Program-made: the position numbers and the translations under genes
The notes under the pieces: generated by a model
The model's database searches: none
What the model was told of the DNA's origin: nothing
What the model saw: only the letters and a program-made list of their open reading frames with translations
DNA from: an uncultured Bacilli bacterium
Lineage (GTDB): Bacteria > Bacillota_I > Bacilli_A > RF39 > UBA660
Assembly: GCA_944350495.1 (NCBI GenBank)
Contig: CALVOZ010000004.1
Span: 77,564-141,563 of the forward strand
DNA length: 64,000 nt
Direction of reading: 5' to 3'
Shown: piece by piece, positions 9,184-40,269 of the stretch
Position numbering within the stretch: the first letter of the stretch is position 1
How the letters are laid out: every line of letters begins with the position of its first letter

Positions 9184-10132
9184 CTAACTTTTTCCCAATT
9201 AATTCTTCTTTTTTTACCCCGTTTAAATAATCTTTTGCATTCATTCTCTTTTTACCTTCAGGTTGAATTACCGTTAAGATTATCTCTAAATCTTTAGTTT
9301 GAATATGAATACCTAAGTTAGAAGTATTTGTAATAGTTCCTGGTTCTTTATTAGTACTTTTATCACCAATAATAGATTCCCATACTTTTAATCTTTTACC
9401 ATTTAACATTGTATAAGCTACTGGCCAACTATTTAATCCCCTAATTTGATTATACACGGATTTTGCATCTTTATTAAAATCGACAAGTTCATCTTCTGGT
9501 TTTATGTTGTATGAATAAGTTGCTTCATTTTCATTTTGTTTAACAGGATTAATGTTATTAGATAAAATATCTGGTAAAGTTTTCACTAAAAGTTCAGCGC
9601 CTAAATTAGATAGTTTATTGAATAAACTTTCAGCTGTATCTACATCTAAAATTGGAATACTTTCTTGCGTAATTATATCACCATTATCCATTCCATAATC
9701 CATATGCATAATCGTAACTCCCGATTCAGTATCGCCTTCAATGATTGCTCGATGTATTGGTGCACCACCACGATGTTTAGGTAACAATGAAGCATGAACA
9801 TTTATACACTTATATTTTGGATAGTCAATTATTTCTTTTGGAATAATTTGACCATAGGCACAAGTAATAATAATATCTGGCTCATAAGCTAAAATACTCT
9901 GGTAATCTGCACGTATTTTTACTGGTTGCAATACAGGAATATTATGAGCAAGTGCTAAATCCTTAACTGGTGTCGTTTTAATTTTACCTTCTCTACCAAC
10001 TTGTTTATCTGGTTGAGTTACAACTGCTACAACATTATAATTTTTTATTAATGCTTCTAGAACAGGAACACTAAAATCAGGAGTTCCCATAAATACTATT
10101 TTAATATTATTCATTAAATCACCTATTAACAT
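9176..10132 (-). CDS. fmt: Methionyl-tRNA formyltransferase
   Basis: 318 aa. KIVFMGTPDFSVPVLEAL...VVTQPDK, with the HASLLP and formyltransferase C-terminal domain. Confidence 0.92.
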   Translation of the reverse strand: MLIGDLMNNIKIVFMGTPDFSVPVLEALIKNYNVVAVVTQPDKQVGREGKIKTTPVKDLALAHNIPVLQPVKIRADYQSILAYEPDIIITCAYGQIIPKEIIDYPKYKCINVHASLLPKHRGGAPIHRAIIEGDTESGVTIMHMDYGMDNGDIITQESIPILDVDTAESLFNKLSNLGAELLVKTLPDILSNNINPVKQNENEATYSYNIKPEDELVDFNKDAKSVYNQIRGLNSWPVAYTMLNGKRLKVWESIIGDKSTNKEPGTITNTSNLGIHIQTKDLEIILTVIQPEGKKRMNAKDYLNGVKKEELIGKKLGD

Positions 10133-27977: not shown

Positions 27978-28805
27978 CTAAAATTTAATTAATAATCTTT
28001 GTCCTGGTTTAATTAAATTAGGATTATCTCCAATAATATCTTTATTTTCTTCATATAAATCTTTCCAATATACTTTATACTTCATCGCTATATCCCATAA
28101 AGTATCTCCTTTTTGAACTATATAATATTTATTATCATTGTTTAATAGTTCATTAACCAAATCTTGTATCTCATTATAATTATATCCTGCTTCTTCTAAC
28201 CTTTTCTTTCGCATATTTCCATTATCCCATTTTCCTTGAATAACTTCTTTAGCAATTTCATTATTAGACTTTTTTAAATTATTACTTTTCTCTTCATAGA
28301 TTTTCCATTCATATGAATTTTTAGATACTTTCACATCTGGATGCAAAAATAACGCTTTAGTTATATCATATTGATTATTAATAAGCCAAGCATATGCTTT
28401 TACTTTTGGTTGATACTTTCCTTTATACCAACCAGTTCCTTTAAATTTTCCTTTTCCTACTGCAATATGAATATGACTACCAGTAACATTACCTTTTACT
28501 CCAGGTTGATAGTATATTTCATTTCGCTTTATCTTTTTATTAATATATAAATCTGATACATCATTATCATGTAATGTCATAATAGTCATATAGTCAATAG
28601 TCCCGTCAGCGTATTCTACCTTCTTTGAACTCTCTAACCAAATTCCATTACAATTACTATATTTTCTTTTTATTTTACCAGTAAACGGAGCTTTTAAATA
28701 TTTTAGTTTTGATATATCAATAGCTAAATCACCATTATGAGAAAAATTACTATTCATATTTTGACTAATATATAAAACATCTACATTAAGTATAGCTTTC
28801 TCCAT
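27978..28805 (-). CDS. Phage-type endolysin: LAS-family zinc peptidase (M15-like) plus C-terminal LysM
   Basis: 275 aa. HNGDLAID (Hx6D) and GSHIHIAVG (HxH) zinc motifs. C-terminal LysM (YYIVQKGDTLWDIAMKY...KPGQRLLI). Its start overlaps the holin end by 20 nt. Confidence 0.6.
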   Translation of the reverse strand: MEKAILNVDVLYISQNMNSNFSHNGDLAIDISKLKYLKAPFTGKIKRKYSNCNGIWLESSKKVEYADGTIDYMTIMTLHDNDVSDLYINKKIKRNEIYYQPGVKGNVTGSHIHIAVGKGKFKGTGWYKGKYQPKVKAYAWLINNQYDITKALFLHPDVKVSKNSYEWKIYEEKSNNLKKSNNEIAKEVIQGKWDNGNMRKKRLEEAGYNYNEIQDLVNELLNNDNKYYIVQKGDTLWDIAMKYKVYWKDLYEENKDIIGDNPNLIKPGQRLLIKF

Positions 28806-28998
28806 TTAACTTCTCCTGTATTAAATTTAAAACTGCACTTATTCCCATAGCAATCGCACCTATCATCATAGATTTAACTAAATCAAAATTAGATAAATCT
28901 GTAGTTGGTAAAACAACGATGATGCTTGCAATGAAGCCTTCTATAAATGTTTTAAGCACTTTGCCAAGTAACTTGTCGTTCAATATTTTCTTTAACAT
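28786..28998 (-). CDS. Phage holin
   Basis: 70 aa with two TM segments and a charged C-terminus. It immediately precedes and overlaps the endolysin. Confidence 0.55.
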   Translation of the reverse strand: MLKKILNDKLLGKVLKTFIEGFIASIIVVLPTTDLSNFDLVKSMMIGAIAMGISAVLNLIQEKLNGESYT

Positions 28999-29293
28999 CT
29001 TCTACCTCCTTTAACTCACTAGGTAATTTATATAATTCATCAACCATATTTTTAGCAAATATATCACCTTCAAAGTGTTGATAATTCCTATAAATTTCAC
29101 TAATATTATCTTTCATATAATTAGGACAATATCCTAATTCTATATATTTTTCATATATTCTAATGATCTCATTTTTTAGTAATGCTTTTAATCCATTCTT
29201 TAAACTCATATAGCCTTTTAACATATAAGCTACACTAGAACTTATAATTGTAAAAAGAATTTCTAACCAATACTTTAATATAAATTCAATCAT
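28952..29293 (-). CDS. Phage lysis-cassette membrane protein (BhlA/XhlA-like), putative
   Basis: 113 aa. N-terminal TM, then a coiled/charged tail. Its end overlaps the holin start. Confidence 0.35.
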   Translation of the reverse strand: MIEFILKYWLEILFTIISSSVAYMLKGYMSLKNGLKALLKNEIIRIYEKYIELGYCPNYMKDNISEIYRNYQHFEGDIFAKNMVDELYKLPSELKEVEDVKENIERQVTWQSA

Positions 29294-29347: not shown

Positions 29348-30091
29348 TTACAAATATAAATCTTGTTTTTTTATATAATCTTTCATTATTCTTAACATTT
29401 TGTCATACTGTTTTATTCCAACATAATCACTAGATGATACATACATTTTTTGATTTGAAAGAGAAATTACTATTGGTAATTGATACACGGGTCTATCTTG
29501 AATTGCTACTCTTTCTGTTATTTTTTTTGTAATATCATTTGTCTTATCAACACATAAAATATGCGTTACATATATATCACTACCAGTAAGTGCTGGATAT
29601 TGTTTAGCAAGATATTCTAAGCATACATCAAAATATGCTTTTCGAAATTCTTCAGTTATTTCCTTACCACTTAAATCAATTAATATATATGCCCGACTAG
29701 AAATCCTTCTTTCCTTCAAAAAACAATATATATTACAATTTAAACTATTTTCAATCATAAAAATATCTTTGTATTCTTTTTTAGAAAGAAATTTCGATAA
29801 ACTATTTTTCAAACTATAAAATGATGAACACTTAACATCAAATTTTTTAGATTTAATATTTCGCTCTTCAATTTTTATAATGTCACCAAAATTAATTACT
29901 AGAATAAGCCACCCAATCGTTAATAAGAATATTAAAACGCGCACAAAGTTACCTATTCTCTCTTGATTTGATGGAAAATTCAAACCTAAGCTTATACCAA
30001 ATATAATAATTAAAATTATACCAAAAACTGTAAGCAGTATCTCTAATAATTTTGCTTGCGTTTCAGTCAATTTCAGTAATTTCTTTTTCAT
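29348..30091 (-). CDS. Candidate immunity protein for the upstream RHS C-terminal toxin (2 TM plus cytoplasmic domain)
   Basis: 247 aa. Two N-terminal TM helices. It sits 18 nt downstream of the RHS-CT ORF, the canonical immunity position. Confidence 0.35.
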   Translation of the reverse strand: MKKKLLKLTETQAKLLEILLTVFGIILIIIFGISLGLNFPSNQERIGNFVRVLIFLLTIGWLILVINFGDIIKIEERNIKSKKFDVKCSSFYSLKNSLSKFLSKKEYKDIFMIENSLNCNIYCFLKERRISSRAYILIDLSGKEITEEFRKAYFDVCLEYLAKQYPALTGSDIYVTHILCVDKTNDITKKITERVAIQDRPVYQLPIVISLSNQKMYVSSSDYVGIKQYDKMLRIMKDYIKKQDLYL

Positions 30092-30109
30092 AATCTCTCT
30101 CCTTAATTA

Positions 30110-30820
30110 TTATAACATAAATAAAAGGCCAGCGCCAACGGCAGCACCTATAGCAACATTGCCATTTAATACATTAAATGTATCCCACCAATAACAGCTT
30201 GAACTTACTTTGTTATCTTTATTTCGATCAGGTTGGTCAAGATAATAATTTGTACCGGCATTCAGCACAAAATCAGCCCTTTCATTTCTAATAATTTTTT
30301 TTGTATAATTACTAGTCTTGATAGTTTTCGTTGACTGTGGTTGCCCCCATTGAGGATTTATTTTTGTTTTCCCCGGCATCTCTACTTTATCAATAAGTGA
30401 ATCAGTCGAATAATCAATAACTATATCTTTTGATATATTACCAACAGAATCCAGTAAATCAAATTTATTGAAGCTCTTTTCCCCACTTATATATTGTTCA
30501 ACTTCTTCACTACCAGATTCAGCAATTGATCCAAGAATGCCAGAAAAAATAGCGGTAGAAGGTATTACAGAAAAAGACGTTGTAACAAAGCCACCAATAA
30601 AAGCACTATGAAGTCCTTCATTCCATTTTCTTCCTTGTAACTTATTAGAAACTACTTTAGCTCCTCCACTTGCAATTCCGCCTATAATTCCAACTGCAAG
30701 TACAAATAAAATACCATATCCTTCTGTGTCAACCATAACAATTGGATCGTTATCACAATAAGCATATAAATTGTAAGACATTATATTTCTATTTGCACCC
30801 AATATGCCATCAGCATTCAA
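30110..30820 (-). CDS. Orphan RHS/YD-repeat C-terminal toxin module (TTG start) with glycine-zipper membrane segments
   Basis: The translation begins in the RHS core-end motif, NADGILGANRNIMSYNLYAYCDNDPIVMVDTEGYG (the DPxG...NLYAYxxNNP...DPxG signature). It is followed by a CT domain with ILFVLAVGIIGGIASGGAKVV and AIGAAVGAGLLFML. Confidence 0.6.
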   Translation of the reverse strand: MNADGILGANRNIMSYNLYAYCDNDPIVMVDTEGYGILFVLAVGIIGGIASGGAKVVSNKLQGRKWNEGLHSAFIGGFVTTSFSVIPSTAIFSGILGSIAESGSEEVEQYISGEKSFNKFDLLDSVGNISKDIVIDYSTDSLIDKVEMPGKTKINPQWGQPQSTKTIKTSNYTKKIIRNERADFVLNAGTNYYLDQPDRNKDNKVSSSCYWWDTFNVLNGNVAIGAAVGAGLLFML

Positions 30821-31078
30821 AAATCTCCCTAATATTGGACTATAGTATCTACTATTTAGATAATATAAATTAGTTTCTGTATCATAATAATAACTTCTAT
30901 ACCTAAATGGATTAATTATGCCTATATGATTACTATCAGTTATATCATTTCCGTTACTATCAGTAATAGATAAGATATTACCCCAACTATCATACCTATA
31001 ATTAACTATTAAATTATAATTACTATCTAATATCCCTATAATATCTTTTTGAATATTTTTAACATAATAGTATAATCG
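30821..31078 (-). pseudogene. 5' remnant of the RHS gene: in-frame YD-repeat/core fragment without a start codon
   Basis: The frame is open upstream of the TTG to the stop at 31079-31081 and encodes ...NYRYDSWGNILSITDSNGND...NPFRYRSYYYDTETNLYYLNSRYYSPILGRF. It has no ATG/GTG/TTG and lies right after the htrA terminator, so the RHS body is missing. Confidence 0.55.
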
Positions 31079-31144
31079 TTATTATACTTAAATTTTACTA
31101 GTTACATTACATACATAGTATATCATATTATTAAATTATCTAAA

Positions 31145-31178
31145 AATTAAAAGACTAATTTAAATTAGTCTTTTATAA
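31145..31178 (-). terminator. Terminator after htrA
   Basis: aagactaat-ttaa-attagtctt hairpin followed by a T-rich tract. Confidence 0.5.
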
Positions 31179-31192
31179 ATATGTATACTTTA

Positions 31193-32422
31193 TTAAGATA
31201 AAGTTACATCTACTTCTGTTTCTCGATAATTTCCTAAAACAAAATATTTTATTTTTAAAGTTATTTTATCTCCTTTTTTCTTTTTTGAAATAACATTACT
31301 TAAATCACTAAAAATATTAACTTCTTGACCATTAATTTCAGTTATTATATAACCTGCTTCTAATCCTGCTTTTGAAGCATTGCTTTCAGAAACTACTTTA
31401 GTAATATAAAAGCCATTTTCAATAAAATAACCATTTATATTTTCATTTGTTATAATGTAACCTTCAATACCTAAAGTTACACCTTCTTCAATTTCTTCAC
31501 CATTAATAATATCAGTAATAAGAGCTTCTACATCAGAAATTGGAATAGCAAATCCCATTCCTTCAATACTAGCAGAACTAATAGTTCCATTTGATGAATA
31601 TTTAGCTGAATTAATGCCTATTACTTCACCTTTACTATTAAGTAAAGCACCACCACTATTTCCACCATTAATAGCAGCATCAATTTGAATCATTGAATTA
31701 GTATAATTATCTATAGTAACTTCTCTTTCTAAAGCACTTATAACACCTGTTGTGACTGATTGACCATATCCTAATGCATTACCGATTGCTATAACACCAT
31801 TTCCAACTTTTATCTCATCACTATTTCCAATTGTAGCTATCTTAATTTCTTTAATTGTTTCTTCATCTAGTTCATTCAATTTTACAGATATAACAGCAAT
31901 ATCTTTACTTTTAGATGTTCCCTTAATAGTGGCATCTACGGATTTATTATTTATAAATTGTACTGTTAATTCTGAAGCTCCCTCAACAACATGATTATTC
32001 GTTACTATAAATAATTCTTCGTCAGATTTACTTATAATAATTCCAGAACCAGCGCCTTCCGTATATTGATTTTGACCATAATAATTTGGTCCAAATCTTC
32101 CACTTGAAATTAATGTTTTACTTGTAATAGCAACAATAGAAGGCATAACATTCTCAACTACTTCTGAAACATCTATCATATAAACACCTTCTGTGGTTTC
32201 AACTTCTGTATTAGTATACTGTAAAGTTACCAGTTCTTTATTTTCAGTTAGGGCCTCTTTACTATCAGCAAAATAATTTTCTCCAAGTATAACTAAAATA
32301 GCAATTATTAATAAGAGTAAAATGAAAAGACATAATATTATTTTTTTATTAAAACTTTTTTCTTTTTCTTGAATATTTAAAGTATTATCCATTTTCTTTA
32401 CCTTCCTTTTAATATATAACAA
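31193..32422 (-). CDS. htrA: HtrA/DegP-family serine protease (TM anchor, trypsin domain, PDZ)
   Basis: 409 aa. Catalytic triad context TNNHVV (His), DIAVI (Asp) and GNSGGAL (Ser). C-terminal PDZ. Confidence 0.85.
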   Translation of the reverse strand: MLYIKRKVKKMDNTLNIQEKEKSFNKKIILCLFILLLLIIAILVILGENYFADSKEALTENKELVTLQYTNTEVETTEGVYMIDVSEVVENVMPSIVAITSKTLISSGRFGPNYYGQNQYTEGAGSGIIISKSDEELFIVTNNHVVEGASELTVQFINNKSVDATIKGTSKSKDIAVISVKLNELDEETIKEIKIATIGNSDEIKVGNGVIAIGNALGYGQSVTTGVISALEREVTIDNYTNSMIQIDAAINGGNSGGALLNSKGEVIGINSAKYSSNGTISSASIEGMGFAIPISDVEALITDIINGEEIEEGVTLGIEGYIITNENINGYFIENGFYITKVVSESNASKAGLEAGYIITEINGQEVNIFSDLSNVISKKKKGDKITLKIKYFVLGNYRETEVDVTLS

Positions 32423-32424
32423 AA

Positions 32425-33108
32425 CTATTTTTTTGTCGTTTTTCTACTACTAGTAAGTTCATATATAATATCAGCTTGATTACATACATTCTCTGAATGA
32501 GTTACAATAACAACACATTTATTTTCTTGTTTAGCTAATCCTTTTAAAATTTCTAAAATATCATTCTCTGTTTCTTTATCCAAATTACCTGTTGGCTCGT
32601 CTGCTAAAATTATTTTGGGATTATATGATAAACTTCTTGCAATGGCCACTCTTTGTTGTTCTCCACCAGATAATCGCAATACTCTTCTATCTTTTTGTTT
32701 TTCTGTTAAACCTACACTTTTCATAAGTTCTAAGGCTTTTTCACTTTTTTTATCTATTTTTAATTTACTAACATTCATAGATAAAATAATATTTTCTAGA
32801 GCCGTTAAATGTGGTAATAAATTATAACTTTGAAAAACAATTCCTATATCTCTGCTTCTATAATCATCTAAATCAATTTCTCTTAATTCTTTTCCTTCAA
32901 ACTTAATTGAACCTTCATAATCTTTTTCTAAACCGCTAATTAATGATAATAATGTTGTTTTACCACTACCACTTTTTCCTTTTATAGCATATACTTTTCC
33001 TTTGGCAAAAGTATAATTTAAATTTTTCAACACATAATCATCTTTTTCAGCATCACTATATCGATAAGATACATTTTCTACTTTTAAAATTATGTCTTTT
33101 TCTTTCAT
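32425..33108 (-). CDS. ABC transporter ATP-binding protein (MacB/FtsE-like)
   Basis: GKSGSGKTT Walker [16 protein letters not shown] signature, [11 protein letters not shown]alker B. Confidence 0.9.
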   Translation of the reverse strand: MKEKDIILKVENVSYRYSDAEKDDYVLKNLNYTFAKGKVYAIKGKSGSGKTTLLSLISGLEKDYEGSIKFEGKELREIDLDDYRSRDIGIVFQSYNLLPHLTALENIILSMNVSKLKIDKKSEKALELMKSVGLTEKQKDRRVLRLSGGEQQRVAIARSLSYNPKIILADEPTGNLDKETENDILEILKGLAKQENKCVVIVTHSENVCNQADIIYELTSSRKTTKK

Positions 33109-34577
33109 TATGATCGCTCCTTTAATATAGTTAATGGTGAAAATTTTTGAATACTTACCATAGCACTTACAGAACTAATTAAAGTTATTATTAATCCAAT
33201 TCCTAAAAGTTCTAATAATACTTTTAAATCAACTGCAGCATTTATACTATCAACTGTCTGAATAGATGTTACACCATTAAATTCTTTATTAGCAAAATCT
33301 TGAGTTGGTGGTTGTCCAGTTTCCATTCCTTTACCAAAATTTTGTCTAATACTATTTGTTTGGTTTTGTGAATTTGATATTTCATTTTCAAGTAATTGAT
33401 TAGAGATAGGAACGCTTATAATTGCACCTATACCAGCACCTAAAATCAAAGATATAAAAGCAACAATTAATAATTCACTAATAAATTGTAAACATACTTT
33501 TGATTTTTTCATACCAATAGTTCTTAAAACACCTATTTCATATTTTCTTTCTCTAATATTTATCATATTAATTACTGATAAAACAACTGTCCCAATAATA
33601 AGTGTAATGATTAAGAATGTAATAGCAAAGTTTTTAACATTAGAAATTGTACTCGTAGCATTTTCAACTTGTTCTAAATTAGTTTGAAGAGTTAAATATT
33701 CGCTTAATCCTTTTTCAGTTAATTCAGCATTAAAGGCATCAACTACATTAATATTAGTTAAAATAAATGTAGGTGTAATAGATACATCTAAATCTTCATT
33801 ATTCATTTTCATATTACTGATAAAGTTGGTGTTGGTAATAATAATATTTACAGAATTTGAAAACATACTCATTCCATTATCTTCATTTTCTTTTTCTTCA
33901 TATATTCCACTTACAACTAATTCATAACTATTAGAATCATCTTCACTATCAACAATAGTAATTGTATCTCCTACTTCTATTTCATTTAAAGTAGCAAGTT
34001 CACTATTAATAATACAACTATTATCTTCAAAATCTTCAGAAACTTCACCATCAACAATAGTATAGTTTCCTTCAATAAATTCATTCATTGCCTCAATTGA
34101 TGAATATCCTTTTAATGTAAAATCACCATTTGTTTGATTTTTAAAATCTTGTTTGCCACCTGGTCCTCTATCACCAAAATCATTATTGCTTGATGTCATT
34201 TCAGCTTTTTCTAAATCAGAAGAATTTACGCCTACACTCATAGTATAGTAATAACTATCAACATAAGTACTATCAGCATAATTTTTAATATCATCTTCTG
34301 TCAATTGATTAGCAGCTTCAAATATTTCTTGCATATTTTCTCTAGAATTTTCTCGATCTTCAGGATTAAAATTTTGCATCATATTATCTCTATTCATACT
34401 AATAATTGCTTCTACTTCATATTTTGATTCATAAGATTTAATTAAACTATTAGAAGAATTATTGATAGCTAGTGTTACAGAAACAGCACAAGATATTACA
34501 ATAACAATTAAGCCAATTAATAAATTTCTTCCTTTATTTCTTACAATTGATATAATTGCATTTTTTAAAATATACAT
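33108..34577 (-). CDS. ABC transporter permease, FtsX/MacB-like with large extracytoplasmic domain
   Basis: 489 aa. TM1, a long Asn/Ser-rich ectodomain, then 3 TM (FtsX fold). Start coupled to the ATPase. Confidence 0.85.
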   Translation of the reverse strand: MYILKNAIISIVRNKGRNLLIGLIVIVISCAVSVTLAINNSSNSLIKSYESKYEVEAIISMNRDNMMQNFNPEDRENSRENMQEIFEAANQLTEDDIKNYADSTYVDSYYYTMSVGVNSSDLEKAEMTSSNNDFGDRGPGGKQDFKNQTNGDFTLKGYSSIEAMNEFIEGNYTIVDGEVSEDFEDNSCIINSELATLNEIEVGDTITIVDSEDDSNSYELVVSGIYEEKENEDNGMSMFSNSVNIIITNTNFISNMKMNNEDLDVSITPTFILTNINVVDAFNAELTEKGLSEYLTLQTNLEQVENATSTISNVKNFAITFLIITLIIGTVVLSVINMINIRERKYEIGVLRTIGMKKSKVCLQFISELLIVAFISLILGAGIGAIISVPISNQLLENEISNSQNQTNSIRQNFGKGMETGQPPTQDFANKEFNGVTSIQTVDSINAAVDLKVLLELLGIGLIITLISSVSAMVSIQKFSPLTILKERS

Positions 34578-34627
34578 ATTTTCCTCCTCACACTGAAATT
34601 ATACTTTGTAAACCTTAAATGAAGATT

Positions 34628-34667
34628 AAATAAATTAAAAAAACAGAATTTTTTATTTATTCTGTTT
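34628..34667 (-). terminator. Terminator after the histidine kinase gene
   Basis: aacagaat-tttttatttatt-ctgtt hairpin overlapping the last codons, with a T-run on the transcript. Confidence 0.5.
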
Positions 34668-35849
34668 AAATTGTACCTTAAATACCGTATAGCCATTTTT
34701 ACAATCAACGGAAATATGTCCATTATGATTTATAACAATATTTTTAGCAATCGATAACCCTAAACCAAAACGATTAGCATCACGATTTCTAGATTTATCA
34801 ATTCGATAAAATCTTTCAAATATCTTTTCACGTTCATCTTTAGGAATAGCATCCCCCCTATTCTGAACTTCTAAATAAATAATGTTTTTTTCTTTATATA
34901 ATTTAATATTTATGGTTGATTGTTCATATCCATGTTTTATAGCATTATCTATTAAAATACTAAGTAATTCTTTTATGCGATCTAGATTACAGCAAAACAT
35001 AATAGAATCTTCAATATCTAATTTTAAAGTTAAACTTTGTTCAAACATTAAACTTTCAAAAGATAATGAAGTGCTTTCTACCAACTTTGATAAATTGACT
35101 TCACTAAATGTTTCTTGTTCTTTTATATATTCTGATTTAGATAAATCTAGTAAATTGGTAACTAGCTTACTCATTCTATGCGTTTCACTTTTAATATTAT
35201 CTAGCCATTTTTTTTCATTAGGATTCTCTTCAAATGTCTCAGCACTAGCCATAATAATCGATAATGGTGTCTTTAATTCATGAGAAGCGTCGTATATAAA
35301 TTGTTTTTGTTTATCAAAAGATTCGATAACTGGTTTTACTAACCATTTTGTTAAATGCCAAGACACATAAATAATTGCCATTTCTAGTCCGATAAATAAG
35401 AAGAAAGAAGTAAATAATAAAGATATTAAGTAATCTTTAACGCGACTATTATTGATAATTATTAAATCACCATTATTATTTAATGAAAATATATATTTAT
35501 TAAAATATAAATTTCTTATTTCTCCTATTCTATCTATATTATTATTTACAAGTTCAATTATTTTACTATCACTTAATCCATCATTTGTATAATTTATAAT
35601 TGTTTTTATATTACCTCTAATATCAACAGAAACAACATATACCTCCATATCCATAAACATTGGATTTTGGTTTTTATCAACGATGGGATTAAATCGTTCA
35701 TGAGCATTTTTAATTTTAATAAGTTTTTCTTCTAATTGTTTATATTCTTGATTATAAATACTAATATTTAAAATAATTAATATTGTAAGTAAAAACATTG
35801 TTAAAATAGAGATTAATAAAAAGAAAGTTTTATTCTGAAGTTTCTTCAT
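34653..35849 (-). CDS. Sensor histidine kinase (2 TM, HisKA, HATPase_c)
   Basis: H-box SHELKTPLS; N, G1 and G2 boxes (NAIKHG, GLGLSIAKNIV). Confidence 0.88.
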   Translation of the reverse strand: MKKLQNKTFFLLISILTMFLLTILIILNISIYNQEYKQLEEKLIKIKNAHERFNPIVDKNQNPMFMDMEVYVVSVDIRGNIKTIINYTNDGLSDSKIIELVNNNIDRIGEIRNLYFNKYIFSLNNNGDLIIINNSRVKDYLISLLFTSFFLFIGLEMAIIYVSWHLTKWLVKPVIESFDKQKQFIYDASHELKTPLSIIMASAETFEENPNEKKWLDNIKSETHRMSKLVTNLLDLSKSEYIKEQETFSEVNLSKLVESTSLSFESLMFEQSLTLKLDIEDSIMFCCNLDRIKELLSILIDNAIKHGYEQSTINIKLYKEKNIIYLEVQNRGDAIPKDEREKIFERFYRIDKSRNRDANRFGLGLSIAKNIVINHNGHISVDCKNGYTVFKVQFKQNK

Positions 35850-36528
35850 TATCCACCTCTAACTTATACCCTAATCCTCTAACCGCACGTATATTTACCA
35901 AAGAACCAATAGCTTTTAATTTTTTTCTAATAAAGGAAATATAAGCTTCTAAATTATTAGATAAGGTATCATTATCTATACCCCATACATTATCATATAA
36001 AAATTCTTTGGATACAATTTGATTAGCATTTTTCATCAAACACTCTAAAATTAAAAATTCTTTACAAACAACATCAATAGATTCTCCTGTCTTCGTACAT
36101 GTTAATACAGTTGTTTTTAAATCTAATTTTAAATCTTCAAATTCTATATAGTTAATATTTTTTTTATCATTATTTTTACGCAATCTAATATTTACTCGTG
36201 CTACTAATTCTTCCATATGAAATGGTTTAGTCAAATAATCATCAGCACCGTTTTCAAATCCTTCTAGTTTATCACTGATAGAATCCCTAGCAGTTAGCAT
36301 CAAAATGCTTGATTTTGTATTATTGTCTTTTAGTGTCTTTAGTATTTCAAAACCATCTTTTTTAGGAAGCATAACATCCAATATTATTAAATCATAAATA
36401 TCTGTTAAAGCTTTAAATAATCCCTCTTCCCCGTCTAAAGCAATATCAACAATATAATTTTCTTTTTTTAATCTAGTCTGAATCAAATCAGCTAGCTTAT
36501 ATTCATCTTCAACAACCAATATTCGCAC
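35830..36528 (-). CDS. OmpR-family response regulator
   Basis: MRILVVEDE...D(52)...winged-helix C-terminus (RGLGYKL). Confidence 0.9.
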   Translation of the reverse strand: MRILVVEDEYKLADLIQTRLKKENYIVDIALDGEEGLFKALTDIYDLIILDVMLPKKDGFEILKTLKDNNTKSSILMLTARDSISDKLEGFENGADDYLTKPFHMEELVARVNIRLRKNNDKKNINYIEFEDLKLDLKTTVLTCTKTGESIDVVCKEFLILECLMKNANQIVSKEFLYDNVWGIDNDTLSNNLEAYISFIRKKLKAIGSLVNIRAVRGLGYKLEVDNEETSE

Positions 36529-36629
36529 AAGATATCACCACCTACTAGTATTATAATTCATAAACCTTAAATAAAGATTAATTTTCTTTATTATATCATG
36601 CGCGAAGATAATAAATAAATTTGTGTTAT

Positions 36630-37658
36630 CTACTTTAAGATTTTAATAATTGAGATACGGCCAAGATAAAAAATAACTATAATTGATACAAGCACTGTAC
36701 TTGTAATAAGAAGGCCTAAAACATATAAAATACTTATTAAATTAAATTTCAAAAAAGATATTGGTAATATAAGCAAGATTAAGCTTATAATAAAACTTAT
36801 CACAAAACTAATAGTTAAAATTAATGATAATTCCATTAAAACAATCTTTAAAAGATGTATATTAGAATATCCTAAAGCCCGCATTATTGCATAATCAAAA
36901 ATATTATCATGCAAAACAATCAAGGTAATAGCCACAATAAATAAAGTTTCAAATAAAATTAAAATATTTTTTAATATTTCGGCATTTGTACATAAATTAC
37001 GATAATGATTTAGAATGTTGTTATTTTGATCATAAACACCAATACCATAGTCATCTAACTTGCTAATTAATTCATTAAGGTTATCATAATCATCAGCTAA
37101 AACCATTACTTCTTTAATATTGCTTAAATCAAGATAATTATAATAAACATTATAAGAACATAACATACTAGTTAAAGAACCATCATAAGCATTGGCTATA
37201 TTATATTTAGAGCTTTCATATATTCCTACAATTTTATATTCCTGATTATTAACAATTAATTTATCTCCTATTTGATATTCAGACAATAAATTAGACACTA
37301 ATATTTCATTATCATTTTTAATGTTGTGACCATCTACTAATTCAATAAATGCTTTATCGCGATAACTAAACACAAAGTCATCTATCACAACTTCTTTAAT
37401 GGGATAATAATGTTTAACTTCTTCTATCTTATTTAATTCTTTAATAACATCATTATAATCTTTTTCAAAAATTAAATGAAGATATGAGGCTGCTAAAAAT
37501 TCTTCTTTTTTAGTTTGATATATTTGCTTTGTACCTTTAATAAAATAACCGGTTAAAATTAATAATAAAAAAATAATAGTTGCTACATTTAGCGTGAATT
37601 TAACTAATTTTTTCTTTTTTAAAAAACTTTCTAAAAATAATTTATATTTCACAATCAT
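36630..37658 (-). CDS. ABC transporter permease, FtsX-like (second half)
   Basis: 342 aa. N-terminal TM, extracytoplasmic domain, 3 C-terminal TM. Confidence 0.65.
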   Translation of the reverse strand: MIVKYKLFLESFLKKKKLVKFTLNVATIIFLLLILTGYFIKGTKQIYQTKKEEFLAASYLHLIFEKDYNDVIKELNKIEEVKHYYPIKEVVIDDFVFSYRDKAFIELVDGHNIKNDNEILVSNLLSEYQIGDKLIVNNQEYKIVGIYESSKYNIANAYDGSLTSMLCSYNVYYNYLDLSNIKEVMVLADDYDNLNELISKLDDYGIGVYDQNNNILNHYRNLCTNAEILKNILILFETLFIVAITLIVLHDNIFDYAIMRALGYSNIHLLKIVLMELSLILTISFVISFIISLILLILPISFLKFNLISILYVLGLLITSTVLVSIIVIFYLGRISIIKILK

Positions 37659-38826
37659 CTAATTCCTCTATAATCGATTTTTTTTTATCTTTTAAAGCAA
37701 ATCTAGTAGATAACAAAGAAATCAATAAGCAAGCTGTAAAACTACCAAAAATTGAAAGATAAGATATGTAAATATTAATTCCCGTTTTAATATCGGCATT
37801 ATACTTATTTAATAAAATAAAATAGATAATAATAACTATAATCATAGAAATAATAAAGCTAAATACCACAAGTATTAAATTTTCTAAATAATTAACTCGT
37901 ACTAACACTTTATTGCTATATCCCATTGCTTTATAAATTAAATTACTTTCTTTATTATAAGTCATAAACTTCTTTGTTAAAATAAATAGGATAATAAAGA
38001 CAAAGATTAATATAATCGCAGTTACTGCTAAAAAAGTACTTAAAATAAAAGTAATAGTCGGTGTATTTATTTGTATTATTTCATCAACACTATATTTAGA
38101 ACCTATTTTTTTGGCAATCTCATCTTTATCATTAACATGATCAACAATTACATAAACATTACTATCTTCACTGATATAGCAACCTTCACAGTTTTCTAAC
38201 TCTGTCTCGATTAATTTATGCATATTAGTAATACTCGTAAAACAAGTATTATATTCACCATAAGTATACTTATCGTTATCAAAAATACCAACCACTGTAT
38301 AATCTAATTCATGTTCATTAATAATAAAAGTAAAAATTTCACCTAAATAATTACTACCATCATGTAATTTACTAACAAATTCTTTATTGTAATTCTCTGG
38401 TTCCAAACCTAAATAGAATGTTTCAGGGCAAATAATTACTTCGTCATCTGTCAATAACTCTCCTTTATTAACCTTAATAAAATCATTTGGAACACCATAT
38501 AAATTAATATATTCATCATTATTAGTCTTAACTGTTAATCTATATTCATCTTCACTAATAACATATGAAACACCATCTATCTCTTCTAACCATTTTTTAT
38601 CAATCACGCTATAATCACTTGATACTCTCAAAGTTCGATAACTAAGATTACCAGTAGAAGAATTAGATAAGAAAGTATAAAAAGTCTTAAAGAAGCTACA
38701 AGAAAATATGATTAATAACGTGCAAATAATCAAAAGGAAAGCATTAATAATATTTATCTTTTTATGAAAAAAAGATTTAAAGGCTAAAAATAAATATGAT
38801 TTACCCCTCATAAATGAACCTGCCAC
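37642..38826 (-). CDS. ABC transporter permease, FtsX-like (first half)
   Basis: 394 aa, same topology. It overlaps neighbours on both sides, giving a split BceB-like permease. Confidence 0.65.
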   Translation of the reverse strand: MAGSFMRGKSYLFLAFKSFFHKKINIINAFLLIICTLLIIFSCSFFKTFYTFLSNSSTGNLSYRTLRVSSDYSVIDKKWLEEIDGVSYVISEDEYRLTVKTNNDEYINLYGVPNDFIKVNKGELLTDDEVIICPETFYLGLEPENYNKEFVSKLHDGSNYLGEIFTFIINEHELDYTVVGIFDNDKYTYGEYNTCFTSITNMHKLIETELENCEGCYISEDSNVYVIVDHVNDKDEIAKKIGSKYSVDEIIQINTPTITFILSTFLAVTAIILIFVFIILFILTKKFMTYNKESNLIYKAMGYSNKVLVRVNYLENLILVVFSFIISMIIVIIIYFILLNKYNADIKTGINIYISYLSIFGSFTACLLISLLSTRFALKDKKKSIIEELDDCEI

Positions 38827-39478
38827 TTTTCATTTTTAAAACATAGTCTGCATACTCTACGATAACTGGATTATGACTAACAACAATAACACAGTTTCCT
38901 TCATCAGCTAATTTTCTCAGCTTTTCTAAAACATATTTTTCTGTAAACTCATCTAAATTACCAGTTGGTTCATCGGCCAAAATGATTGAGGGTGAATTAG
39001 CCAAAGCTCTAGCTATGGCTACACGTTGCTGCTCACCGCCTGATAATTCTTTAGGATAATGATTGACTCTATCTTCTAAACCTACTAATTTTAATAATTC
39101 CTTAGCTCTTTTTTTCATATCTGTTTTATTATATTTATCATTAATAAGCATTGGTAACATAACATTTTCATACGCTTTCATCGTATTGTTTAAATAATAA
39201 TCTTGAAAAATGAAGCCTATCTTTTTATTTCTTATTTCATTTTTACTATGTTCTTTTAAAGAACTTACATTTTCGCCGTCTATATATATTTTTCCACTAT
39301 CAACTTTATCTAATAGTCCCATACATTGAATTAAAGTACTCTTTCCACTACCAGAATGCCCCATAATTGCATAAAATTTACCATATTCAAATGTATAAGA
39401 AATATTATTTATAGCATGTATTAATTCATTTTTTAAGTAATAATCCCTACACAATTTATCTACGCTAATAGCCTCCAT
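38801..39478 (-). CDS. ABC transporter ATP-binding protein
   Basis: [36 protein letters not shown]. Confidence 0.9.
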
Positions 39479-39910: not shown

Positions 39911-40269
39911 CTAATTCATAAACTACAATATTTGTAATTACAAATATTATTAGTATTAAATTGATTATTATGATTATTAACGTATTTCTAACCACCTTAT
40001 TTATCTTCATTATGTCACCAATCTATACTAAATTTTATAGTATAAAATCTAATATCATGCACTTTCAGTTAAAATAATATATCTTATTTATCAAATTATT
40101 TTCTTATTGATATTAAACTTTTTATCAGAGTCATAATCGCAATATGAATTTAAATTTTTTATTAAAACACATATAAAATTCATTGTTTAGATGAAATAAT
40201 CAAACAACAGTACATTTTCCATTAATGATATTTATTATTTAATAATTAAGTTTTATTACTTACATATTA

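Follow-up and report, generated by a model that had tools for sequence, protein, structure and literature searches.

A probable in situ remnant of an RHS polymorphic-toxin gene with its immunity gene beside a holin/endolysin cassette in an uncultured Bacilli bacterium

A 64,000-nucleotide stretch from an uncultured Bacilli bacterium (contig CALVOZ010000004.1; hereafter the window, meaning this whole stretch) carries the remnant of an RHS toxin gene, an immunity gene and lysis genes, all on the minus strand. We conclude with good confidence that the segment from 31135 to 29348 (minus strand) is an in situ 3ʹ remnant of an RHS polymorphic-toxin gene for about 2050 amino acids (aa), together with its cognate immunity gene. 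The rhs gene at this site is a remnant and not a functional RHS/YD-repeat toxin, as the shell array is absent. The features of the remnant and of the immunity gene are as follows, with CT standing for the C-terminal toxin tip and TM for transmembrane; the relative L012 and the homologue P0005 on contig L074 are described below.

31149..31174, minus strand: AT-rich hairpin plus T-run after the htrA stop codon (aaaagactaatttaaattagtctttt + aattttt), read from the sequence as the htrA terminator; left boundary of the remnant
31079..31135, minus strand: decayed RHS coding sequence in which, compared with the intact gene, 8 nt are deleted and three stops stand in frame (alignment A2 with the L012 RHS gene, 9935-10000)
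30719..31078, minus strand: open, start-less RHS core-end fragment of 120 codons, with the core at 30719-30994 (TIGR03696), ending ...YAYCDNDPIVMVDTEG
30515..30718, minus strand: CT part 1, a helical hairpin that is hydrophobic and rich in Gly, YGILFVLAVGIIGGIASGGAKVV ... HSAFIGGFVTTSFSVIPSTAIFSGILGSIAES (KD19 peaking at 2.05 in helix 1 and at 1.51 in helix 2)
30164..30514, minus strand: CT part 2, polar region of about 117 aa, rich in S, K, N and D; no Pfam, NCBIfam or PDB match
30110..30163 (30113-30163 plus the stop codon), minus strand: CT part 3, Gly/Ala hydrophobic C-terminal tail, NVAIGAAVGAGLLFML, absent from P0005
29348..30091, minus strand: candidate immunity gene, 247 aa, N-in two-TM hairpin (aa 11-42 and 45-74, by hydropathy) plus a cytoplasmic domain of about 175 aa
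29320..29346, minus strand: hairpin and T-run after the immunity gene, read from the sequence, which parts the cassette from the lysis genes and has an equivalent in L074

The frame of the fragment is open from 31078 to the stop codon at 30110-30112, and its first ATG, GTG or TTG is the TTG at 30820, where the called open reading frame (ORF) of 236 aa (30110-30820) begins. A preliminary description of this DNA had counted 86 open codons above the TTG and noted a missing start codon; the count is exact (31078-30821, without ATG, GTG or TTG), and the core-end fragment indeed begins without any of the three. The RHS homology assumed there was confirmed by profile search, in which the 321-aa read-through matched NCBIfam TIGR03696 (Rhs_assc_core) over aa 28-119 (30719-30994) with an E-value of 1.3e-18 and 67.3 bits, well above the cut-off of 32.5 bits, the match covering profile positions 1-75 of 76. 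The description had spoken of terminal YD repeats plus the RHS core end. The core end is certain; the repeats did not hold up, all YD-repeat models being sub-threshold in the read-through (Pfam RHS_repeat, 15.3 bits vs 22; TIGR01643, 13.3 vs 15.8), and at most one degenerate YD repeat is left in the fragment. The peptides that had been quoted (NPFRYRSYYYDTETNLYYLNSRYYSPILGRF, DPIVMVDTEGYG, GIIGGIASGGA and AIGAAVGAGLL) were each found in the translation. Before the CT of 202 aa lies a putative autoproteolysis motif (two Asp, DPxG-like; GRFLNAD...NDPIVMVDTEG), which aligns with the motif in 60 relatives and at which cleavage is predicted. When a full-length relative was used as the tblastn query, it matched only 31075-30692 in the 64-kb window, confirming that the RHS body of more than 1000 aa is missing. 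This segment spans the core-end fragment and about nine more codons, and is 78% identical to aa 1757-1884 of the L012 RHS protein (tblastn).

A scan of genome collections returned 62 loci with related core ends, the best of which was L012, in a metagenome-assembled genome of an uncultured Bacilli bacterium. At the syntenic chromosomal site, L012 has an intact RHS gene of 2050 aa with a CT unlike that of the window. Past this unrelated CT there follow, in order, a 147-aa gene in the immunity position, a 113-aa gene, a holin, an endolysin, spoIVA, PBP1A and recU; upstream of the RHS gene there are two helix-turn-helix (HTH) regulators, a 241-aa protein, a 152-aa sigma-70 region-4 protein and a 391-aa Gp10_C protein. 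The aa identities between L012 and the window were 99% for the 113-aa protein, 98.6% for the holin, 96.7% for the endolysin and 91% for spoIVA, and the flanking core genes were 75-78% identical at the DNA level. The cassette had been described as displaced, and this has to be given up, considering that L012 carries an intact RHS gene at the same site, followed by the same 113-aa, holin, endolysin and spoIVA genes. The window is without the upstream genes of L012 and about 5.3 kb of rhs, and a block of ATP-binding cassette (ABC), two-component and htrA genes adjoins the remnant. The ancestral locus would have comprised HTH regulators, a small sigma-70-family factor, a Gp10_C partner, a signal-less RHS gene, the immunity gene, optional orphan cassettes, the 113-aa gene, the holin and the endolysin, and its RHS protein would have consisted of a DNRLRE domain, a YD shell, the core and the CT. 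In the lineage of the window, the part of RHS 5ʹ of residue ~1738 would have been lost, with the break just past the htrA terminator.

The junction itself was then resolved at the nucleotide level. Decayed RHS homology reaches about 57 nt above the open frame, to ~31135, and the remnant starts about 14-16 nt past the htrA terminator hairpin, which a terminator scan had missed because it has fewer than three G-C pairs. Within the decayed stretch, AATAATATGATATACTAT at 31115-31132 was considered as an extended -10 promoter and rejected, as it is coding sequence of the intact gene, where it encodes NNVIYY of the full-length RHS protein. Of ten independent same-species metagenome contigs with the cassette, seven reach the htrA/remnant junction, which was identical in all of them, and the remaining three start downstream of it. 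As independent contigs have the junction in common, an assembly artefact was rejected.

Some further differences between the window and its relatives were observed around this site. The block of about 8 kb next to the remnant (31193-39478) contains ABC/FtsX genes, a response regulator and a histidine kinase, another FtsX/ABC pair, and htrA. The relative has its orphan array, regulators, Gp10_C gene and RHS body in this place, and the block may have taken over from them. The 113-aa, holin and endolysin genes (window 27978-29293 vs L012 11409-12724) are 97-98% identical at the DNA level, compared with 88% for spoIVA and 75-78% for flanking core genes, which suggests a recent exchange of the distal RHS/lysis module between species. 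A 69-nt intergenic stretch at 40161-40229 is 98.6% identical to L015 7942-8010, the adjacent genes being about 75% identical; it may mark where the exchanged island begins on the left, or be a regulatory element that is conserved. It corresponds neither to a tRNA nor to any Rfam family, and a tRNA or Rfam element sought as the marker of an integration site was not found.

The cassette varies among strains in a way that points to recombination. Four contigs of the window's species (L001, L008, L009 and L010) carry two tandem orphan cassettes, the extra upstream one lying at L001 6777-9271 and also present in L008-L010. Cassette 1 is composed of a core end and a short CT, both decayed, a gene for a 216-aa two-TM membrane protein and a truncated 113-aa gene, and cassette 2 is the CT plus immunity gene as in the window. 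The allele of the window is chimeric, with its 5ʹ part from cassette 1 and its 3ʹ part from cassette 2, indicating a putative deletion of the tandem upstream cassette by recombination between core-end repeats. In L002 and L005, a patch of 205 nt in the core end (L002 9096-9300 and L005 5252-5456, equivalent to window 30792-30996) has 29 mismatches (85% identity) and an in-frame stop, with 100% identity on both sides. This mosaic patch shows that the core-end remnant does recombine, and it suggests gene conversion with an unsampled RHS core end as the donor. Across the ten same-species contigs, the CT and immunity genes were at least 99.7% identical (the immunity gene, 29348-30091, was conserved at 100%), while the core-end remnant varied.

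In L015/L012 and L013, up to three or four orphan cassettes lie between the main RHS gene and the lysis genes or upstream of the main RHS gene, and the arrays lead into the lysis cassette. Several of these cassettes close with truncated copies of the 113-aa gene, which also stand after orphan cassettes in L001, L015 and L074. Based on the cassette structure and these truncated copies, the left homology arm is the RHS core end and the right one is the first lysis gene. Orphan cassettes downstream of a recombinable full-length rhs gene were found in L013 and L015/L012 and not within the window, where the start-less, decayed core end would serve only as a left homology arm.

As had been described, the gene in the immunity position encodes two TM segments plus a cytoplasmic domain: two strong hydrophobic helices are followed by a C-terminal domain of about 175 aa. 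Neither the CT nor the 247-aa protein matched Pfam, NCBIfam, PHROGs or PDB sequences. Scans with PDB profiles and a relaxed Pfam scan gave nothing significant for the pair, and the best sub-significant matches (OEP16/Tim17-like, E 0.71; DUF6773, E 0.18) were disregarded. The statement that the CT is not a nuclease or deaminase agrees with these results, as no such family was detectable in the Pfam, NCBIfam and PDB-profile searches. A word index of 5.8 billion proteins returned same-species copies of the CT and immunity protein only, with no relatives outside the species, and CT-alignment scans of metagenome and viral contigs gave no match.

However distant, one homologous pair was found. When the polar part of the CT was searched with HMMER against all 1.84 billion representatives, one real match was obtained, P0005 (E 8e-7), while P0006 from the same scan was a repeat artefact. 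P0005 is of the orphan type, consisting of a core end plus a CT, and is 35% identical over the hairpin and polar region (35.8% for part 1 and 36.2% for part 2). Its contig, L074, is 1961 bp long and contains a truncated 113-aa gene, P0005, a gene for a 250-aa protein, a hairpin and the start of an intact 113-aa gene. The 250-aa protein is 38% identical to the 247-aa protein of the window (E 3e-56). A CT at 35% and an immunity protein at 38% identity between conserved flanks are the signature of a cognate polymorphic toxin/immunity cassette, and this diverged pair supports the view that the CT and the 247-aa protein are cognate toxin and immunity protein, of a family not yet classified. With its start-less core end, variable CT and co-varying immunity gene, the element is an rhs-CT/immunity cassette, as had been proposed, and a known kind of element, the orphan rhs-CT/immunity relic, gains new members in its CT and immunity families. 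The immunity gene would be the selected part, protecting against kin that deploy the toxin, and the CT, which would not be deliverable from the locus in the window, may persist as a silent reservoir.

The preliminary description had assigned the CT to a membrane-depolarising type, on the strength of two Gly/Ala hydrophobic stretches. Both stretches are present; the type did not find confirmation, considering that Gly-rich stretches are common in sister tips, that P0005 is without the tail and that the cytoplasmic domain is the better conserved part of the immunity protein. Among 60 related RHS tips, a hydrophobic Gly-rich stretch straight after the cleavage motif was common, and such stretches also occurred in tips with domains that by eye are GIY-YIG-like (L016, L022, L024, L026 and L038) or REase-like (L033). 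A Gly-zipper stretch past the RHS cleavage site does not, alone, identify a tip as pore-forming. Action of the toxin at or through the cytoplasmic membrane is probable: the Gly-rich hairpin would insert in the membrane, and the TM hairpin and cytoplasmic domain of the immunity protein would neutralise the toxin there. As the mode of killing, depolarisation and activity of the polar domain seem about equally likely, each being possible rather than probable.

If the CT were a pore former or ionophore, its Gly-zipper helices would span the target membrane and dissipate the potential, and the two-TM protein would block them inside the membrane. Consistent with this, helix 1 is strongly hydrophobic (KD19 2.05) with GxxxG-type spacing, no catalytic family is detectable in the CT, and the immunity protein is anchored by a two-helix hairpin, like the immunity proteins of contact-dependent inhibition ionophores (PMC11630599); glycine-zipper depolarising toxins are also known from Gram-positive bacteria, namely TelE (PMC10434224) and EsxX (PMC12744356). 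However, the helices of P0005 are weakly hydrophobic (KD19 1.3 and 0.95, with a Lys inside helix 1), the Gly/Ala tail is missing there, and the sister tips with GIY-YIG- or REase-like domains also have Gly-rich segments after the cleavage site. Moreover, ionophore immunity proteins are 72-100 aa long, whereas that of the window has a further 175 aa in a cytoplasmic domain, its part with the highest conservation (44% identity to the L074 homologue, compared with 28% for the TM hairpin), and the 117-aa polar region of the CT is conserved as well as the hairpin (36%). No homology of the CT to an ionophore or pore-former family was found in the Pfam, NCBIfam and PDB-profile searches.

Held just as tentatively is a bipartite tip, in which the hairpin would serve for membrane insertion or translocation and the polar domain of about 117 aa would be toxic at the cytoplasmic face, where the cytoplasmic domain of the immunity protein would neutralise it. 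The glycine zipper of Tde1 is needed for the translocation of that nuclease effector (PMC10240207), comparable hydrophobic stretches precede the nuclease-like domains in the six sister tips named above, and the cytoplasmic domain is the most conserved part of the immunity protein. The hairpin also resembles a TM1-loop(W)-TM2 module, represented by a local profile from seven other RHS tips, weakly but above composition: the window hairpin scored 7.0 bits, a value reached by 15 of 1000 shuffles, and P0005 scored 12.7 bits, reached by 1 of 1000. Against a bipartite tip, this likeness is weak, no fold, motif or family could be recognised in the polar domain, and AlphaFold 2 (AF2) predicts it to be disordered. 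Immunity proteins of cytoplasm-acting toxins are usually soluble, which also counts against it.

The tips of L013 and L021 share a different domain (…GPDGRA.TD.DYSHP..HPDL..PH.HDW.W…) with a hydrophobic C-terminal segment, and constitute another unclassified tip family.

The remnant could also be expressed in its own cell from an internal start, which is the following feature.

30818..30820, minus strand: TTG start of the 236-aa ORF call, with GGGAG at 30825-30829 and a spacing of 4 nt

The TTG ORF would then be made in the producer, and the CT and immunity gene would form an internal toxin-antitoxin module for addiction or growth control, as with Salmonella orphan Rhs; we regard this as unlikely. 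Orphan Rhs tips expressed internally as toxin-antitoxin modules, from internal promoters and a non-ATG start, provide a precedent (PMC7043789), GGGAG stands 4 nt before the TTG, and the CT and immunity genes are nearly invariant in the ten contigs while the core-end remnant varies. However, the TTG at 30820 is not conserved, being replaced by TTA, with no Shine-Dalgarno sequence, in the L002-type allele (L002/L005) and in L012; a spacing of 4 nt is short; and recent common descent explains the conservation equally well. No promoter stands out from the AT-rich background, with 30 promoter-like sites found vs 27.3 expected from shuffles. Ahead of the immunity gene there is a strong Shine-Dalgarno sequence, AAGGAGAG, and the 3ʹ end of the CT contains a promoter-like site extended by TG, at 30138-30109.

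Downstream of the in situ remnant and its immunity gene, the window has the following lysis genes, the cassette of which is apparently intact.

28952..29293, minus strand: 113-aa protein (p113; phrog_4105, E 2e-10) whose gene opens the lysis module, with a hydrophobic helix at the N-terminus; the 5ʹ part of the gene is the right homology arm
28786..28998, minus strand: holin, 70 aa, two-TM (phrog_443 holin, E 0.0019; hydropathy), 36% identical to the gene in the holin position of L029
27978..28805, minus strand: endolysin with an M23-like N-terminal domain, CW_7 (4.5e-19) and LysM (2.6e-13), matching endolysin PHROGs

The holin gene overlaps both the p113 and the endolysin genes. The N-terminal domain of the endolysin is 30% identical to an L029 protein that matches Peptidase_M23, and has HxxxD and HxH motifs (by eye). 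This catalytic domain (27978-28500) was missed by the Pfam Peptidase_M23 model and is homologous to M23-matching proteins of L029 and L017, and we take the endolysin to be a divergent M23 lysin.

The preliminary description had placed the toxin tip next to a phage lysis cassette; the wider RHS clade contradicts the view that this is an unrelated phage neighbour. The closest RHS relatives begin with MKEIEL..REKHFLQEDG and have no hydrophobic N-terminus (KD15 maximum at most 0.22). Their frame opens 1-6 codons past an upstream stop in L012, L014, L021 and L029 (37 codons in L016), and a frame that starts right after the stop leaves no room for an upstream start. Sec signal peptides are present in more distant RHS clades. 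The lack of a signal in the clade was read in the relatives only, as the window has no cargo N-terminus. A second metagenome scan with the N-terminal 450 aa added 48 loci, and the tally was made on 33 complete loci (30 after dereplication); signal-less DNRLRE-RHS loci are L012 (648-12724), L021 (3080-13280), L029 (1297-10900) and L076-L117. A gene for Gp10_C, a phage baseplate domain, was immediately upstream of the signal-less RHS gene in 28/28 loci, a small sigma-70 region-4 factor was present in 11/30, and lysis genes were found in the fetched flanks of 21 of the 26 evaluable loci, or 20/25 after removal of the L021 duplicate. In L021, a non-homologous pair, Phage_holin_4_1 and Amidase_2, stands at the position of the 70-aa holin and M23/CW_7/LysM lysin of the window, and in loci of the L029 type the lysis cassette is upstream of the RHS gene. 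Replacement by non-orthologous genes at a conserved position argues for functional coupling. With a cassette that recurs in about 20/25 loci of the clade in at least two non-homologous forms, the gene neighbourhoods indicate that it belongs to the RHS toxin locus.

By analogy with the type 10 secretion system (T10SS), the signal-less RHS protein of intact loci would be released by the action of the holin and endolysin. That signal-less RHS proteins of gut Bacilli, with a Gp10_C partner and often a sigma factor, are exported by a phage-derived holin/endolysin cassette, the first gene of which doubles as the right recombination arm for CT/immunity swaps, is in our judgement evenly balanced.

Several points weigh against the interpretation of the locus given here, that is, an in situ remnant of a lysis-linked RHS toxin locus with a cognate CT/immunity pair. 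Five evaluable loci had no lysis cassette in the fetched flanks, with SMC, ABC and other chromosomal genes following the RHS gene, and the lysis link is frequent rather than obligatory. The lysis genes were called by a small tblastn panel, and the positives L083 and L104 rest only on matches to cell-wall-binding domains. The absence of a full-length rhs gene was established by tblastn within the 64-kb window, the rest of the genome lying outside that search. Furthermore, the CT family amounts to two clusters among the 1.84 billion representatives, both of the orphan type, and no full-length RHS protein bearing a tip of this family was found in the databases searched. Finally, the AF2 model of the CT (single sequence) had a pLDDT of 38.6 and was unusable, and that of the immunity protein, at 58.7, was weak.

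It is very improbable that the lysis cassette is the end of a decayed prophage lying by chance beside an unrelated rhs relic: p113, the holin and the endolysin do have phage relatives (PHROG and phage tblastn matches) and RHS genes are found in phage genomes, but the linkage holds in about 20/25 loci with non-homologous holin/lysin pairs in two positions, no capsid, portal, terminase or tail genes were seen at the related RHS loci, their flanks are chromosomal (gpsA, polIV, rsmD, ylbD/E and ribosomal protein genes), and the orphan cassettes end in p113 fragments, so p113 adjoined them at their formation. The annotated phage context of p113 (BigBern1) was uninformative, its neighbours all being hypothetical proteins.

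Taken alone, the feature in the window is an ordinary orphan rhs-CT/immunity relic, in which neither the toxin nor the immunity protein has a classified relative. With the orphan rhs-CT/rhsI pairs of Enterobacteria (Poole 2011, PMC3150448; Koskiniemi 2014, PMC3967940) it shares a start-less, 5ʹ-truncated core end, a variable CT, an adjacent immunity gene and signs of recombination via core-end sequence, and its relatives also share tandem arrays downstream of the main rhs gene. Unlike in Enterobacteria, the element belongs to a Gram-positive, signal-less RHS lineage without a type VI secretion system (T6SS), the main rhs gene has been lost at the locus, and the right arm is the first gene of the lysis cassette. 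WapA-type toxins (WapA of B. subtilis; WapA of S. suis with an orphan WapA-CT2, PMC12704120) have in common the DNRLRE domain, RHS shell, polymorphic CT and immunity gene, as well as orphan truncated copies. WapA, however, has a Sec signal peptide and wall-binding LysM repeats, whereas the parent clade here is signal-less, with a Gp10_C partner and a holin/endolysin.

Regarding the tip, the EC93 ionophore family of CdiA-CT (PMC11630599), TelE (PMC10434224) and EsxX (PMC12744356) share its Gly-rich hydrophobic helices and, in the immunity protein, the two-helix membrane element. They show no sequence similarity to it; the hydrophobicity of the window's helices is not conserved in P0005, the sole homologue of the CT, and the tip and the immunity protein add a 117-aa polar domain and a 175-aa cytoplasmic domain, respectively. 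The T6SS DNase Tde1 (PMC10240207) likewise has a Gly-zipper N-terminal to the rest of the toxin, where it is proposed to permeabilise the target membrane for entry. It is not homologous to the CT, its carrier and secretion route differ, and the downstream domain of the window's tip matches no known activity.

The linkage of the clade to Gp10_C partners and lysis cassettes is a more interesting lead than the relic in the window. T10SS of the Yersinia Tc toxins (PMC10847048) and of the C. difficile pathogenicity locus (TcdR/TcdE/TcdL; PMC12485765) share a large signal-less cargo, RHS-containing in the Tc toxins, with adjoining phage-derived holin/endolysin genes, to which a small alternative sigma factor is added in some loci. 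Here, in contrast, the putative cargo is a polymorphic toxin directed at other bacteria and paired with an immunity gene, the hosts are Gram-positive gut Bacilli, and the window keeps only the lysis genes and the toxin tip. Should the linkage reflect export, the T10SS idea would extend beyond toxins directed at hosts to warfare between bacteria of the gut microbiota. The route of WapA across the Gram-positive wall has been stated to be unresolved (PMC12704120), and we found no paper on a holin/endolysin-linked arrangement for Rhs polymorphic toxins; a signal-less RHS clade linked to holin/endolysin and Gp10_C genes offers a concrete, testable hypothesis for the exit of large Gram-positive RHS/WapA toxins.

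RHS genes with related core ends were also observed in phages. The complete genome of the Anaeroplasmataceae phage NatCom_34063 (PV036447.1; L011 7435-12945) encodes an RHS protein of 1836 aa, the core end of which is 42% identical to that of the window, and several 'Bacteriophage sp.' contigs from human faeces have core ends that are 45-48% identical, some in two to three copies. With a full RHS gene in a phage genome and such contigs, RHS toxins are also phage cargo in this ecosystem.

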